Virus record (IMG/VR): IMGVR_UViG_2740892369_000015
Direction: 5' to 3' (one strand)
DNA from: a virus
Lineage: Duplodnaviria; Heunggongvirae; Uroviricota; Caudoviricetes
Length of the DNA stretch: 8,110 nucleotides
How positions within the stretch are numbered: position 1 is the stretch's first letter; each line of letters starts with the position of its first letter. Shown piece after piece: positions 179 to 6,018 of the stretch. The position numbers and the translations under genes are program-made. The notes under the pieces were generated by a model that ran no database searches, had not been told where the DNA came from, and saw nothing but the letters and a program-made list of their open reading frames with translations.

Positions 179-2044
179 TTATGCTGCCGGTGCATTTATC
201 TCCAGCATCAGACTTTCTATCTCAACGCCATACGCTGCATTTTTTGTAACATCCGTCAGCGTCAGCGCATTCAGTCCCAGTGTCAGACTGTCTTTTATAA
301 CCTGGAATGCCGGGCCAGCCACTCCATTCAGTTTCGGAGTAACCGTGGCACTGCCGGCGGTGAACACCAGCTCCAGCGTCTGCCAGTCGTTACCGTAATC
401 GCCGAACTCCCCCAGCTTCGTGTTTCCGGCTTTCCTGTGATGCATCAGATTCACTCTGCCGTCAGTGGTCTGAGTGAAGTACGACATCAGGAACGGATTA
501 CCGGTACCCGTCATCGCCACACCATCAGGAACGGGAGCATCCGTATACAGATAAATCCCCAGCCCGAACTGATTGTTGGTCAGCGCGCCTGACAGGCGGA
601 ACTTACAGGTCAGTCTGCCGCCCTGTGTCAGCAGGGTAATTGCGTCATCCACCGGATGCGTCAGGGACCAGGTTTTATTGCTCTGCTTGGCGATCTTAAA
701 TACACCACCCGACAACTGAATTCCGCCGTCCTTAATGGTCCAGCCCTGCGCAGCAGCCTCTCCGGCTGTCGGCAGCAGGGAGATTGTGCGAACGGACGTA
801 TCTGCAGACGGACCCGATGGCGTGTCGCCGCCGGGCGAGGGTTTGATTTCCGGTGCCTTACCACTGATGAAAGCTGAGGTGCGCCCGGCTGCGTTCAGAA
901 TAGCGGTTGCCATACGATCCGGAATAATGCTCCTGCGCGCCCATGAACTGAAATGTGTCGGGCGGTTTGATGATACCTGGTTTCCATTCGTTCTCGATGC
1001 CGCACCGTAATATCCTGATGCCGGAATATCCGGATCTTCTGCCGGTGCGTTAGTGGCGGTATTGACGCCGTTACCGTCTGTCATGAAGGGCACAAAATAA
1101 ACGCCCTCACTCTCCCTGTTTTTATACCCGCCGTACACGGTGTCGTACTGGGTAGCGTATGTATTTTTCCAGTAATACGTCGTGTCACCACAAATCCACG
1201 GCACATTTACAGCACTGCCACCATGACACTGCGCGTTAAACACAGTGAGGTCAGCACGAAACTGCTTCAGCATGGCTGTAAACAGCGCAGGTTGCTGTGC
1301 GTAGGTGGCGGCGCTCATGTCAAACTCTCCCTGCATCCAGCACACCGCCAGCAACACATTTTTCGGGTTCTTCTGTAATGCAGCTTTAGTGCGCGCAATC
1401 AGGTCCTGATATAACGGTTTACCCACACCCCAGCGTGCCGAATCCTGGCTGGCCCCCGTGTCCGCACTGAATGTCCCCTCCGCGCCCTGGGTGAATGCCG
1501 AACCACCACGACAGCATGGTGCCAGCAGGATCCCCGCGTTATTCGGGATATACGGAAGCAGTTTTTTGGCAATATGTAAGCCCTGGCCGACACAGCCGTA
1601 CTGCCCTTTGCTCAGGTCTGCCTTCGGATGATTCAGCGTACTCATATCCTGCACATCATGCAGGCAGTGGTCGGCCGGAATAATATCGTTATATCTGCAG
1701 GCAGCCCCACCCGGCGTCACTGTACTGCGGCGCGCCAGCTGTTTAATGCGCGGATCCGGAGCATCGTATGAATCCGGCAGCGGAAGCCCTTCACCGTAAG
1801 CCATGGCATTGGACTGCCCGGCCAGTACGATGACGTAGTACCAATCCGGCTCAGTTGCACCACTGACCACCACATCACCTTCTGCTGTAATCGCCTGCAT
1901 CAGAGTATAAGGGGTTATGGCCACCGGACTACCAAACGGCTGCCAGCCCTCTTTCAGTTTATGTGTCAGCTTTTCCGCAAGATCTGACGGCGACGCAGCC
2001 CTGACAACATCATAGTGTTTAAATGCCATGGTTCTTTCCACCAT
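179..2044 (-). CDS. nanS: Prophage NanS-p-type sialate (9-O-acetyl-Neu5Ac) O-acetylesterase, SGNH-hydrolase family
   Basis: 621-codon ORF with the SGNH block-I motif GQSN (VLAGQSNAMAYGEG) and the size and position (immediately downstream of the stx-equivalent slot) typical of NanS-p esterases of EHEC prophages. The true start is probably the second Met (ATG 2027-2029, MAFKHYDVV), which is preceded by GGTGGAAAG; the first Met at 2044 has no Shine-Dalgarno. Confidence 0.8.
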   Translation of the reverse strand: MVERTMAFKHYDVVRAASPSDLAEKLTHKLKEGWQPFGSPVAITPYTLMQAITAEGDVVVSGATEPDWYYVIVLAGQSNAMAYGEGLPLPDSYDAPDPRIKQLARRSTVTPGGAACRYNDIIPADHCLHDVQDMSTLNHPKADLSKGQYGCVGQGLHIAKKLLPYIPNNAGILLAPCCRGGSAFTQGAEGTFSADTGASQDSARWGVGKPLYQDLIARTKAALQKNPKNVLLAVCWMQGEFDMSAATYAQQPALFTAMLKQFRADLTVFNAQCHGGSAVNVPWICGDTTYYWKNTYATQYDTVYGGYKNRESEGVYFVPFMTDGNGVNTATNAPAEDPDIPASGYYGAASRTNGNQVSSNRPTHFSSWARRSIIPDRMATAILNAAGRTSAFISGKAPEIKPSPGGDTPSGPSADTSVRTISLLPTAGEAAAQGWTIKDGGIQLSGGVFKIAKQSNKTWSLTHPVDDAITLLTQGGRLTCKFRLSGALTNNQFGLGIYLYTDAPVPDGVAMTGTGNPFLMSYFTQTTDGRVNLMHHRKAGNTKLGEFGDYGNDWQTLELVFTAGSATVTPKLNGVAGPAFQVIKDSLTLGLNALTLTDVTKNAAYGVEIESLMLEINAPAA

Positions 2045-2288
2045 CTGAAAAATAATTCTTTAAAATACCTGACATGTAATACAGAAAAAACACAAAACCA
2101 TACCTTAAATAAAAACCTGATTATCAAGCAGATATGCATGGATAAACTACAAGACGAGATATAAACCACCCTGTATTTAAATAAACAATAAACAACATCA
2201 GAAAAATAATTCTGCTCTATGGTTTAATTCAAAAATATCATTTATACTTTTCAGAACATTACCAGCAAGGCATAAACAAGGAAAGTAA

Positions 2289-2624
2289 ATGAAGTGGATT
2301 GTGATTGATACAGTTATCCAGCCATCATGCGGAATATCTTTTTCAGTCATATGGAGTAAAATAAAATTAATAATCTGGTATCAATCGGATGCTTTCTTAC
2401 CTCCTGAAAGTATATTTACACTGACTCACACAGGCATCATGCTCAATAACAAAGTGCTACCTGTAACCATTTACAACGTAGTACCATTCAATAAAACATT
2501 CTGGAATTTAATCAAAAACAGCCAGGAATGCCCTACAAATACAGATAACGTATTGAATGAATGCTTTAATAACCGTTGCACTCTGCAAATATGTCCTTAT
2601 GGACTAAAACAACAAAGTCCATAA
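2289..2624 (+). CDS. Hypothetical Cys-containing protein (111 aa) in an AT-rich islet, oriented against late transcription
   Basis: ATG preceded by AAGGAAAG at appropriate spacing. A 336-nt open frame is unlikely by chance in such AT-rich DNA. A perfect 12-bp inverted repeat (2594-2605 / 2616-2627, 10-nt loop) spans its stop codon and is followed by GTTTACTC. No homolog recognised by eye. Confidence 0.4.
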
Positions 2625-2642
2625 GGAGTTTACTCACATCTG

Positions 2643-2678
2643 ACAAAATCAATATAAACAGCCCCTCCGGAGAGGGGC
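2643..2678 (-). terminator. Rho-independent terminator for minus-strand transcripts
   Basis: On the minus strand GCCCCTC-TCCG-GAGGGGC (7-bp GC-rich stem, 4-nt loop; plus coordinates 2661-2678) is followed by TGTTTATATTGATTTTGT. The plus strand has no T-tract after the hairpin. Confidence 0.5.
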
Positions 2679-3071
2679 TGGAGAGTGGCGCTATGTGCCA
2701 TTGCATGGTGCCGGGTGCCTCCCGGTGAATTCAGTACCAGCACCTGAATCCGCGATTATCCCATATACCTACTCGCTGATTGCCCCTCCGCACAGGGGGA
2801 TTCACCATGCCAGTTTCTTTTAACAAACTCCCCGCAAACCAGACAACAGTCAACCGCCTGAATTGTGAAGTATTTAAAAATTTCTCCCGCTAACTGATAC
2901 CCGGCTAACAGTCTGGCGTTTTCTTTTTCAGCAACGGGAAAGCAACAACCACCACACCCGCCACCAGTACACAGTCAGCCAGCACTGACATTATCCGGCT
3001 GCTGCAATGCCATTCACAAAAACAGTAAGCAATCACTTTTTACCGTAACAGGTGATAATCCAGATATGTAT

Positions 3072-3398
3072 CTACCCCAGATGAGTAATCCGAAGTTCAT
3101 CCATACCACAGGTCCTGGCTATTCTGTTGTACTCCTGAACAAGAGCAAATAATTCTGAATTAGCAACCATGAACTCATCGCAAACCCTCTGTATAGCATC
3201 ACTATTCAGAAGAATAACGTCTCTTCCCGAAAGACGATCAGGAGTACAGAACAAAACTGTCAAACGGCTGAAGGCCTTTGCTCGTGCTGCATTGACTATA
3301 TCAATACGCTGCCTAAGGATGAAACACCCCGACGCCTCATCAATATTCACTCTACCCACACCATATGAATGATAAATATTTAATACTGAAAAAACCAT
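3072..3398 (-). CDS. Hypothetical protein (108 aa from ATG 3398; the ORF track extends it to a TTG at 3425) in the stx-equivalent cargo position
   Basis: Open frame co-oriented with the late operon, with protein-like composition. There is no strong Shine-Dalgarno. A weak sigma70-like promoter can be drawn upstream on the minus strand (TTGTCA at 3453-3448, 17-nt spacer, AAGTAT at 3430-3425). Not recognisably similar to Stx A or B subunits. Confidence 0.35.
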   Translation of the reverse strand: MVFSVLNIYHSYGVGRVNIDEASGCFILRQRIDIVNAARAKAFSRLTVLFCTPDRLSGRDVILLNSDAIQRVCDEFMVANSELFALVQEYNRIARTCGMDELRITHLG

Positions 3399-3535
3399 TA
3401 GACCGTATAACAAACACTCAATCAATACTTAACAGAACTTTTATTTTTGACAAACATATAATATTTTCAACAATATCCTGAGCCAGGTATATTCCAGTAT
3501 AAGGCTCTGCCGGAAGAAATCTGGAAGAATGAATA

Positions 3536-3612
3536 TGGCGCGTTGTACTGGATTCGAACCAGTGACCGATTGCTTAGAAGGCAATTGCTCTGTCCGGCTG
3601 AGCTAACAACGC
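3536..3612 (-). tRNA. tRNA-Arg (anticodon UCU)
   Basis: Reverse complement is GCGTTGTTAGCTCAGCCGGACAGAGCAATTGCCTTCTAAGCAATCGGTCACTGGTTCGAATCCAGTACAACGCGCCA. It has a 7-bp acceptor stem, D-arm GCTC/GAGC, anticodon stem ATTGC/GCAAT with loop CTTCTAA, T-arm ACTGG-TTCGAAT-CCAGT and an encoded CCA; 77 nt. Confidence 0.85.
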
Positions 3613-3625
3613 ATAATGCAGATAA

Positions 3626-3702
3626 TGGATTGCCATCGGGGACCCGGGCCCCACACAGCCAGTTTCGAAAGCTGACGCTCTCTGCCGATGAGCTAATGGC
3701 GG
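3626..3702 (-). tRNA. Degenerate tRNA-Arg-like gene (anticodon loop TTTCGAA, i.e. UCG), possibly a pseudo-tRNA
   Basis: Reverse complement is CCGCCATTAGCTCATCGGCAGAGAGCGTCAGCTTTCGAAACTGGCTGTGTGGGGCCCGGGTCCCCGATGGCAATCCA, exactly 77 nt in canonical tRNA layout with a good D-arm. The acceptor stem has 2 mismatches, the anticodon stem is weak, and the T-loop CCCGGGT lacks the TTC motif. Confidence 0.5.
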
Positions 3703-3709
3703 TATGTGA

Positions 3710-3785
3710 TGGTGGCCCTTGCTGGATTTGAACCAGCGACCTGGCGATTATGAGTCGCTCGCTCTCACCACTGAGCTAAAGGGCC
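3710..3785 (-). tRNA. tRNA with CAU anticodon (Ile2-lysidine type or Met; ileX/ileZ-like)
   Basis: Reverse complement is GGCCCTTTAGCTCAGTGGTGAGAGCGAGCGACTCATAATCGCCAGGTCGCTGGTTCAAATCCAGCAAGGGCCACCA. Acceptor GGCCCTT/AAGGGCC, anticodon loop CTCATAA, T-loop TTCAAAT, encoded CCA. It closely resembles E. coli ileX as recalled from memory. Confidence 0.85.
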
Positions 3786-3834: not shown

Positions 3835-4884
3835 TCAAACGATTAAATCCTGAACTTCCCTGACTGTCTGTTCAAAACGTCCTGTCTCCAGCTCAACACC
3901 AATCGCACAACGCCCCAGTGCCATCGCCGCTTTTACCGTTGAACCTGAACCCATAAAAAAATCTGCAACCAGGTCTCCCGGACGACTGCTCGCGTTGATT
4001 ATCTGCTGCAGCATTTCTGCCGGTTTTTCGCACGGATGTTTCCCTGGATAGTACTGCACCGGTTTATGCGTCCAGACATCGGTGTACGGAACCTGCGCCG
4101 TCACACCGAAATACCGCCGCAAATTTTTATATTCACTCAGCAGTTCCGTATACTGCCGGTTCAGCCCACTGTATGTGCTGACCAGCTGGTGGTGTGGCTT
4201 TTCCAGTTCCCCGCGCTGATGTTTTTCTGCCGCAACACGCGCAAACAACGCCTGCAATTTGTTGTAATTACCCTCGTTCGGTAACTGCCACTGACTGGTA
4301 CCAAACCAGTGCGAAGCCATGTTTTTCTTTCCGGTGGCTTCCGCTATCTGTTTTGACGTTATTCCCAGTGATTTACGCGCATCACGAAAGTAAGAAATCA
4401 GCGGGGCCATGACGTGCTGTTTTAGCTCGCGCCCCTGTGCCACATAGCCATCATCTTTCGGGCGATACGGTCCCTGATAATGTTCTGCAAACAGAATGCG
4501 CTCTGTTGCCGGAAAATACGCCCGCAGACTTTCCTTATTGCACCCGTTCCAGCGTCCGGACGGCTTCGCCCAGATAATATGGTTCAGCACATTAAAGCGC
4601 TCACGCATCATGATTTCGGTGTCAGATGCCAGGCGATGACCAAAGAACAGGTAAAGACTTCCGGCAGGCTTCAGTACCCGCCAGAACTGCGCCAGACACT
4701 GGTCCAGCCATTTCAGGTAATCATCGTCGCCCTCCCACTGGTTATCCCAGCCCTCGGGCTTCACTTTAAAGTATGGCGGGTCTGTGACTATCAGATCGAC
4801 AGAGTTTTCCGGTAAGGTCTGGATAAATTCCAGGCAATCAGCGTTGATTAACTCACAACTGGATATTTTTACAGTATTAATCAT
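3835..4884 (-). CDS. Beta-class DNA methyltransferase (N6-adenine or N4-cytosine), apparently orphan
   Basis: 349 aa with catalytic motif IV DPPY (LIVTDPPYF) near the N-terminus and AdoMet motif I FxGxG (FFMGSGST) near the C-terminus, the order typical of beta-class amino-MTases. No restriction endonuclease ORF is adjacent. The ATG at 4882-4884 overlaps the stop of an upstream frame as ATGA. Confidence 0.85.
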   Translation of the reverse strand: MINTVKISSCELINADCLEFIQTLPENSVDLIVTDPPYFKVKPEGWDNQWEGDDDYLKWLDQCLAQFWRVLKPAGSLYLFFGHRLASDTEIMMRERFNVLNHIIWAKPSGRWNGCNKESLRAYFPATERILFAEHYQGPYRPKDDGYVAQGRELKQHVMAPLISYFRDARKSLGITSKQIAEATGKKNMASHWFGTSQWQLPNEGNYNKLQALFARVAAEKHQRGELEKPHHQLVSTYSGLNRQYTELLSEYKNLRRYFGVTAQVPYTDVWTHKPVQYYPGKHPCEKPAEMLQQIINASSRPGDLVADFFMGSGSTVKAAMALGRCAIGVELETGRFEQTVREVQDLIV

Positions 4885-5463: not shown

Positions 5464-6018
5464 TCAAGACATTTTTTGAGCAAACGATTCTCGCATAGGG
5501 ATGTATAGCGCATATTCAGCAACAGCCAACCAATTAGCAATTCGCTTTTCGCATGTACTAAAACACCATTCCGGGTGCACCTCATTCAACAATTCAGCCA
5601 TTTTGCGTTTACTCATCCCCCGCCCTTCGTACCTTTGCCGCAGGATATCAATCAATCCAGGATAACGTGCAAGCGCTTTACTTATCACCCCATCAATGCG
5701 TAACGCCTCTGCATCAGTACAGTGAGACAACCAGCTCTTCTGTCTGCCAGCGATCATCTCTCGCAAGAATGCTTCCAGCTCTGGTTTATCAATCCCTGAC
5801 TCCCTGATTCTACGCAGGGCTTCATTGATTGCGGTTTTTGTCAGTTTTTTGGATGCCAGCAACTGATTGAACATATTTCCTGGTTTGCCACCACCTATAT
5901 ACGACCAACGCCCCCACATCCGTAATTTCCCCTGGATCCAGACGGCTTCCAGCGTTTTTAGACGTAAATGCTCGCCGCTTTTGCCTGTAATTTCCGGGTA
6001 TATCATATTTACGATCAC
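5464..6018 (-). CDS. Putative late-gene antiterminator (Q-like), assigned mainly by synteny
   Basis: 180-184 aa ORF directly after rusA and directly before a tR'-like terminator and the tRNA cluster, the canonical slot of Q in lambdoid phages. The GTG start at 6018 overlaps the rusA stop; an ATG 12 nt downstream (6004-6006) is an alternative. No lambda-Q zinc-finger signature is seen, so the family is uncertain. Confidence 0.5.
   Translation of the reverse strand: MIVNMIYPEITGKSGEHLRLKTLEAVWIQGKLRMWGRWSYIGGGKPGNMFNQLLASKKLTKTAINEALRRIRESGIDKPELEAFLREMIAGRQKSWLSHCTDAEALRIDGVISKALARYPGLIDILRQRYEGRGMSKRKMAELLNEVHPEWCFSTCEKRIANWLAVAEYALYIPMRESFAQKMS

Follow-up and report, generated by a model that had tools for sequence, protein, structure and literature searches.

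The closest described relative of the gene considered here is iraL of the uropathogenic E. coli strain CFT073 (YcgW, c1429; Hryckowian et al. 2014, mBio, PMC4045071; c1429 is also equated with iraL in PMC12890032). [quoted passage not shown] Deletion of iraL in CFT073 halves the log-phase half-life of sigma-S, and a fragment carrying the gene with its native promoter raises sigma-S in K-12 (PMC4045071). The iraL mRNA is reported to increase when cells are moved to 37 C (PMC12890032) and when fur is mutated (PMC7157518). The K-12 protein IraM (YcgW/ElbA, b1160; PhoP-induced; structure 8TWD, PMC10844676) belongs to the same family and has the same fold as IraL, with a published identity of 58.9% between the two (PMC4045071). 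Their regulation differs: iraM responds to Mg2+ starvation through PhoP, whereas iraL is a log-phase gene (PMC10948607), for which the original study reports no PhoP control (PMC4045071).

Two other systems are relevant for comparison. PmrD, the PhoP-PmrA connector (PDB 4HN7, 2JSO), shares with IraL a beta-barrel plus helix fold, and both are small proteins that bind a partner of the response-regulator type. However, the target is PmrA-P for PmrD and RssB for IraL, and PmrD is devoid of the Cys-rich C-terminal tail present in IraL. The second comparison is with phage morons and with the cargo of the stx slot, which, like iraL, are independently transcribed, compositionally distinct and located between Q or the tRNAs and the lysis genes. 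As for iraL, morons benefit the lysogen and are absent from otherwise similar phages. In contrast, stx runs in the direction of late transcription, on which it depends, while iraL is antisense, has its own promoter and is expressed during normal growth.

The window analysed here (8,110 nucleotides from a virus of the class Caudoviricetes, IMG/VR record IMGVR_UViG_2740892369_000015) carries an open reading frame of 111 codons with an ATG start and a TAA stop:

2289-2624, + strand: iraL CDS, RssB anti-adaptor IraL (336/336 nt match, NCBIfam, PDB and Foldseek)

This ORF is identical to CFT073 iraL (c1429, WP_000871291.1) over 336/336 nt and 111/111 aa. An earlier note on this DNA, made from the letters alone, had found no recognisable domain in the product. 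This does not hold, since the product is IraL, a member of the IraM family of RssB anti-adaptors. It scores 162 bits against the curated NCBIfam model NF007393 (anti-adapter protein IraM; cut-off 121, E = 4.7e-48, residues 1-110), above the cut-off for the IraM/IraL/RssC family. It also matches the IraM chain bound to RssB (PDB 8twd_A, residues 1-78) with E = 9e-32, and K-12 IraM with 59.5% identity. RefSeq labels the product of the identical stretch in E. coli 97-3250 'anti-adapter protein IraM' (WP_000871291.1), an accession that is also annotated in the potB prophage of CFT073. The Pfam scan of the product returned nothing, even at E <= 10, and thus no significant sequence match to PmrD; precomputed tables nevertheless give PF11183 (PmrD) to relatives. 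The family assignment therefore rests on NCBIfam, PDB and the fold search. In PHROGs the family corresponds to phrog_4407 (E = 3e-73), which is labelled 'unknown function': for iraL, phage annotation resources trail the experimental literature. In the species scan of genomes, relatives of IraL were restricted to Escherichia/Shigella and one Citrobacter, and Salmonella rssC was not recovered. The 111-aa ORF is thus iraL, an already known prophage-carried gene of E. coli, in its usual prophage setting.

The surroundings of the CFT073 gene resemble those of the window. In both, iraL diverges from a DUF1737/nanS-p gene and converges on the STnc100 terminator in a lambdoid late region, with the same -10, transcription start region and inverted repeat. 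The esterase neighbour is truncated in CFT073 but intact in the window. The resemblance to K-12 iraM is more limited. IraM and IraL share a CX10CX4CX4C tail, but IraM ends at K107 and has no equivalent of the QQSP extension of IraL. Its gene carries no 12-bp repeat spanning the stop and has a canonical terminator approximately 60 nt downstream, and no similarity between the iraM and iraL upstream regions is evident by eye. It is noteworthy that K-12 iraM (L002 4414-5004; K-12 1211413-1212003) lies beyond the icdC pseudogene, 268 bp outside e14 as annotated, and adjoins ycgX (DUF1398), a gene typical of lambdoid late regions. The literature assigns iraM to e14 proper, but from this position it seems to belong to a flanking prophage remnant.

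The AF2 model of IraL has a pLDDT of 70-86 over residues 1-79, where a series of strands is followed by a helix (69-77). Foldseek aligns this model with 8twd_A (TM 0.88, rmsd 1.5 A) and with PmrD 4hn7 (TM 0.74, 15% identity). On the model, residues 1-78 form a PmrD-like antiparallel beta-barrel with a flanking helix. The RssB contacts listed for IraM are I4, I6, W22, K26 and I42; T13, C14, F18, W30 and L75; and I61, Y62, H63 and I64 (PMC10844676). In the alignment, ten of these 14 residues are identical in the IraL of the window and the remaining four are conservative (T13S, L75I, H63N and I64V). Since the protein is identical to the CFT073 IraL tested previously (PMC4045071), it is expected to bind RssB and to stabilise RpoS.

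IraL contains five cysteines (positions 14, 81, 92, 97 and 102), one fewer than had been counted in the earlier note. The four of the tail (C81, C92, C97 and C102; residues 81-102, window 2529-2594) are conserved without exception in 14 family members (53-100% identity) and follow the pattern CPx9Cx4Cx4CP. This region was cut off in the structural study of IraM as less conserved and flexible (PMC10844676), and pLDDT falls below 50 across it in the IraL model. A metal-binding or redox role of the tail is possible.

The gene is embedded in the late region of a lambdoid prophage together with the following elements:

2030-2658, + strand: iraL cassette, exchangeable block running from the esterase start codon to the STnc100 terminator (limits from the comparison with Stx2a phage L004)
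2045-2640, + strand: AT-rich part of the iraL cassette (31.9% GC)
179-2044, - strand: nanS-p-like sialate O-acetylesterase gene, divergent (Pfam DUF1737 + SASA + DUF6645; RefSeq annotation in L001)
2650-2839, - strand: STnc100-family prophage sRNA gene, convergent (Rfam RF02076)
3536-3612, - strand: tRNA
3710-3785, - strand: tRNA (ARAGORN)
3835-4884, - strand: DNA methylase
5464-6018, - strand: Q-like DUF1133 protein

All phage late-region genes of the window (Q-like, methylase, tRNAs, esterase) lie on the minus strand and, in the matching genome, are followed by holin, lysozyme and terminase genes on that same strand, while iraL is on the opposite one. The RefSeq-style start of the esterase gene is at 2029. 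The Rfam match to RF02076 (132 bits for a gathering score of 47) covers the full model, and the STnc100 terminator, which the terminator scan detected as the hairpin 2659-2680 with a U-tract, ends approximately 25-30 nt from the inverted repeat located at the iraL stop. Composition sets the AT-rich part apart: it has 27.5% GC upstream of the ORF and 34.5% in the iraL ORF itself. The esterase gene reaches 55.0%, the stretch 2641-3500 has 43.8% and the whole window 49.3%. The earlier note was right to describe an AT-rich segment carrying an antisense 111-aa ORF with a good ribosome binding site.

Comparison with the Stx2a phage L004 defines the limits of the block. The order in this phage is tRNAs, stxA, stxB, STnc100 sRNA, 231 bp and nanS-p. 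Homology to the window breaks off exactly at the ATG of the esterase gene and returns exactly at the sRNA terminator hairpin; in place of window 2030-2658, L004 has an unrelated 231-bp sequence (48.5% GC) with its own canonical plus-strand terminator at the end. The exact junctions and the unrelated replacement therefore show that iraL is an exchangeable antisense cassette in a slot adjoining the stx slot, and, together with the AT-rich composition, that the cassette has been exchanged horizontally. The separate acquisition supposed in the earlier note is thus borne out. That note had also taken absence of the ORF from otherwise similar prophages as a sign against the gene. The ORF is indeed missing from Stx phages, but this reflects cassette exchange and not a spurious ORF. 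The unit has the features of a phage moron, namely its own promoter and transcription start, a distinct GC content and a presence/absence polymorphism with precise junctions, its terminator being putative.

Among 5426 complete E. coli genomes, at least 1428 (~26%) include >= 80% of the 2045-2700 segment, and iraL is divergent from, and on the opposite strand to, nanS-p in all 88 iraL-family loci checked. More distant members of the family occupy similar late-region positions: between Q and nanS-p in E. albertii and, for a 60% variant, between the methylase and DUF1737.

Several observations concern the neighbourhood of the slot. In two E. coli genomes (L006 2501-2836, L007 2501-2836), stxB/stxA and nanS-p directly flank a gene for an iraL-like protein of 111 aa (76% aa identity); therefore some Stx phages carry a predicted RpoS-stabilising anti-adaptor adjacent to their Shiga toxin cargo. 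In the Stx2a phage L004, STnc100 is found at 4497-4698, just downstream of stxB. The 231 bp occupying the iraL slot there (4277-4507) include the terminator GCCCGCG...CGCGGGC followed by TTTTTTG and show no significant Rfam match; they may correspond to an unannotated small antisense-oriented transcription unit. Within the region of the window aligned opposite stxAB of the Stx2a phage (2869-3527), a TTG-start ORF of 117 aa (3072-3425, - strand) gave a hit to PHROG 2873 (unknown function, E = 2e-69) and none to Pfam or NCBIfam. The matching RefSeq genome carries no annotation for this ORF, which recurs beside iraL in 45 of the 88 loci. Between the two called tRNAs, a sub-threshold tRNA-like match (3629-3702, - strand; 22 bits, gathering score 29) probably represents a third, decayed tRNA of an ileZ-argN-argO-type cluster. 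The CAU tRNA at 3710-3785 is assigned to Met by ARAGORN and to Ile by RefSeq.

Transcription of iraL in the window would depend on a promoter located within the AT-rich part of the cassette:

2223-2228, + strand: TTTAAT, degenerate -35 region (assignment inferred from the comparison of 85 upstream regions)
2243-2248, + strand: TATACT, sigma-70 -10 hexamer, 7 nt upstream of the mapped start (invariant in 85/85 alleles)
2256, + strand: transcription start site (homology to the CFT073 5'-RACE result)
2278-2285, + strand: AAGGAAAG, ribosome binding site (AAGGA; read from the sequence)

[quoted passage not shown] CFT073 DNA matches it exactly and the window reads ACATTACCAGCAAGG at 2256. The earlier note had pointed to TATACT as a promoter element of an ORF that would need its own promoter, and the position of the hexamer 7 nt upstream of 2256, together with its invariance in the 85 alleles, supports this. 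Plus-strand transcripts, also called for there, are reported from CFT073, whose gene is identical (PMC4045071; PMC12890032 by RNA-seq). The Shine-Dalgarno-like sequence (ACAAGGAAAG / AAGGAAAG) ends 6 nt before the iraL ATG. The bases just upstream of the ATG differ between the window (GGAAACCAA) and CFT073 (GGAAAGTAA). More generally, the bases directly before the ATG vary among loci (AACCAA, AACTAA, AAGTAA, AGCTAA; window 2220-2288 compared with L003 and L017-L098). Inspection by eye for a PhoP box upstream of iraL revealed a single GGTTTA half-site, which overlaps the -35 region.

Compared with CFT073, the window shows five differences in the promoter and 5' UTR, one of them a 1-nt deletion in the -35 region. 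Upstream of the -10, CFT073 and the commonest allele read GGTTTACA(T/A)TC, which provides a TTTACA -35-like hexamer, while the window reads GGTTTAATTC, where the loss of one C leaves TTTAAT and a 14-nt spacer. Because of this deletion, expression of the window allele may be lower than in CFT073. The allele might even be transcriptionally weak or silent, iraL being then a passenger and not an active regulator: the promoter scan of the window did not call an iraL promoter, and the iraL study, which noted a -35 mutation in some strains, gave its effect on expression as unknown (PMC4045071). We regard this as rather unlikely. The -10, start region, ribosome binding site and ORF are all intact, and the -35 variant recurs in approximately 13 of the 85 loci with an undamaged ORF (another 6 have TTTATA). 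In addition, AT-rich upstream DNA can serve as an UP element, which would favour activity of this promoter.

The 3' end of the gene carries a second feature:

2594-2627, + strand: 12-bp inverted repeat with a 10-nt loop (arms 2594-2605 and 2616-2627)

The perfect stem described in the earlier note was found again, with arms TCCTTATGGACT (2594-2605) and AGTCCATAAGGA (2616-2627) that are 100% complementary. The 5' arm codes for C-P-Y-G-L, and the 3' arm includes the TAA stop (2622-2624). The corresponding terminal RNA hairpin has a predicted energy of -17.5 kcal/mol (z = -5.8). A perfect inverted repeat of >= 12 bp with a 3-20 nt loop occurred in 6 of 300 dinucleotide-preserving shuffles of the window (~2%), so that such a repeat is uncommon in a single window but not at the scale of a genome. 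Homologs, which the earlier note proposed to check for the repeat, do not always carry it at the stop. In a survey of 85 iraL alleles (the 98-100% group), the repeat is perfect in 35 only. The commonest change, a synonymous GGA>GGG in arm 1, is found in 47 alleles; with it, the plus-strand RNA still pairs as G.U, but the DNA and the minus-strand RNA are mismatched. Nine of these 47 additionally carry GGA>GCA in arm 2, and TGT>TGC occurs in two alleles; both substitutions break outer pairs of the stem without compensation (11/85 alleles with broken outer pairs). The 89% and 76% relatives possess a QQSP-type C-terminal extension but retain 7/12 and 9/12 pairs, again without compensation. In iraM-type genes and the other family members the stop occurs four codons earlier and no hairpin spans it. 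From these comparisons, the repeat is a feature of the CFT073-type allele group and not of the gene family.

A conserved RNA element was considered and is unsupported: across 11 family members, paired cells amount to 58% against 54% in shuffles, without a shared stop-spanning hairpin. Local-fold z at the gene end ranges from +0.5 to -2.2 in the other members for -4.6 in the window. No compensatory change in the repeat supports a conserved cis-acting RNA, the sole G.U-compatible change being a single event. Rfam, which detected STnc100 next door, has no family over the repeat. No paper treating the hairpin or the late-region slot was found in the literature on 'iraL'.

The stability of the hairpin, its location at the very end of the ORF just before G-UUU and the canonical plus-strand terminator found at the equivalent place in the Stx2a phage cassette would fit an intrinsic (Rho-independent) terminator, halting RNA polymerase before it enters the STnc100 gene in antisense. 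The GC hairpin 30 nt downstream carries a U-tract on the minus strand only, consistent with a terminator for iraL being provided by the repeat itself. However, the terminator scan of the window did not call the repeat, and this reading is therefore rejected as the primary explanation. Where an intrinsic terminator has a G+C-rich stem, a 3-8 nt loop and >= 5 U in 8 nt, the repeat has 5/12 G-C pairs, a 10-nt loop and a tail (GUUUACUC) with 4 U in its first 8 nt. Moreover, since the stop codon is inside the 3' arm, a terminating ribosome would melt the stem, and the broken outer pairs and the degraded stems of the 89% and 76% relatives also argue against termination. We consider true termination at this site doubtful.

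Part of the same evidence could indicate a repeat devoid of function. The nearly self-complementary P-Y-G codons (CCN TAT GGN) may have seeded a quasi-palindrome, which drift or a template-switch mutation would have made perfect in a single allele lineage as the ORF gained four codons (QQSP) from its 3' flank. Such a history is consistent with a repeat that is perfect in a minority of alleles, decays in close relatives with no compensatory change and has an equal in some shuffles. It also agrees with the iraM-type genes, which end at K107 and whose palindromes are limited to short local ones at CCATATGG, and with L008, which keeps a partial TCCATA complement downstream of its stop. The z of -5.8 and the exact 3'-end position, on the other hand, fit a functional RNA hairpin, and the majority variant retains G.U pairing in the sense RNA. 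This origin is a serious possibility, although we hold it at somewhat less than even odds.

A role at the DNA level is highly improbable. The 12-bp arms, with centres 22 bp (about two helical turns) apart, and the location near the right end of the cassette might suggest a palindrome bound by a dimeric protein, or a recombination site mobilising the cassette. But most alleles contain a G:T mismatch as DNA and the cassette junction lies approximately 30 bp beyond the repeat, at the STnc100 hairpin, which makes either role unlikely; with the junction at that hairpin and not at the repeat, the recombination-site reading is rejected. The arm is also single-copy in the window, its matches in the fetched loci are all at the iraL 3' end, and no recombinase is associated with it. 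The repeat is probably either a weak 3'-end RNA hairpin of the plus strand or a non-functional quasi-palindrome.

A more speculative proposal, to which we attach little weight, is that the hairpin acts as a translation-sensitive insulator. If so, it would form on untranslated iraL mRNA and limit read-through or protect the 3' end, while a ribosome at the TAA would melt the stem and let RNA polymerase continue antisense through STnc100, 25-30 nt away; IraL synthesis would then be coupled to silencing of the prophage sRNA. A second possibility of the same speculative kind is a metal or redox switch formed by C81, C92, C97 and C102 and controlling the stability of IraL.

Taken together, the data are best explained, with a probability of about 0.9, by an iraL cassette of the moron type with its own promoter, encoding an RssB anti-adaptor and ending in a weak or allele-specific hairpin. 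The cassette resides in the late region of a lambdoid prophage, in the slot adjoining the stx slot of Stx phages, and would be read from its own sigma-70 promoter opposite to phage late transcription, which should make iraL expressible in the lysogen. The predicted product, composed of a PmrD-like beta-barrel N-terminal domain and a Cys-rich tail, would bind the adaptor RssB and block delivery of RpoS to ClpXP, so that RpoS would increase during growth; the RssB and RpoS steps were demonstrated experimentally for the identical CFT073 gene (PMC4045071). Any influence of the terminal hairpin on the stability of the 3' end, or on read-through into the convergent STnc100 gene, would probably be modest at most.

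The importance of iraL lies in the higher RpoS levels that it brings about in growing cells of many pathogenic E. coli, a role published in 2014 (PMC4045071). The present analysis leaves the current understanding of iraL unchanged and adds modest context to it. Within the lambdoid late region, the gene has a defined, exchangeable slot that is bounded by the STnc100 terminator and nanS-p and adjoins the stx slot; its promoter alleles differ in the -35 region, its terminal hairpin is allele-specific, and a 76% variant is found directly beside stxAB.
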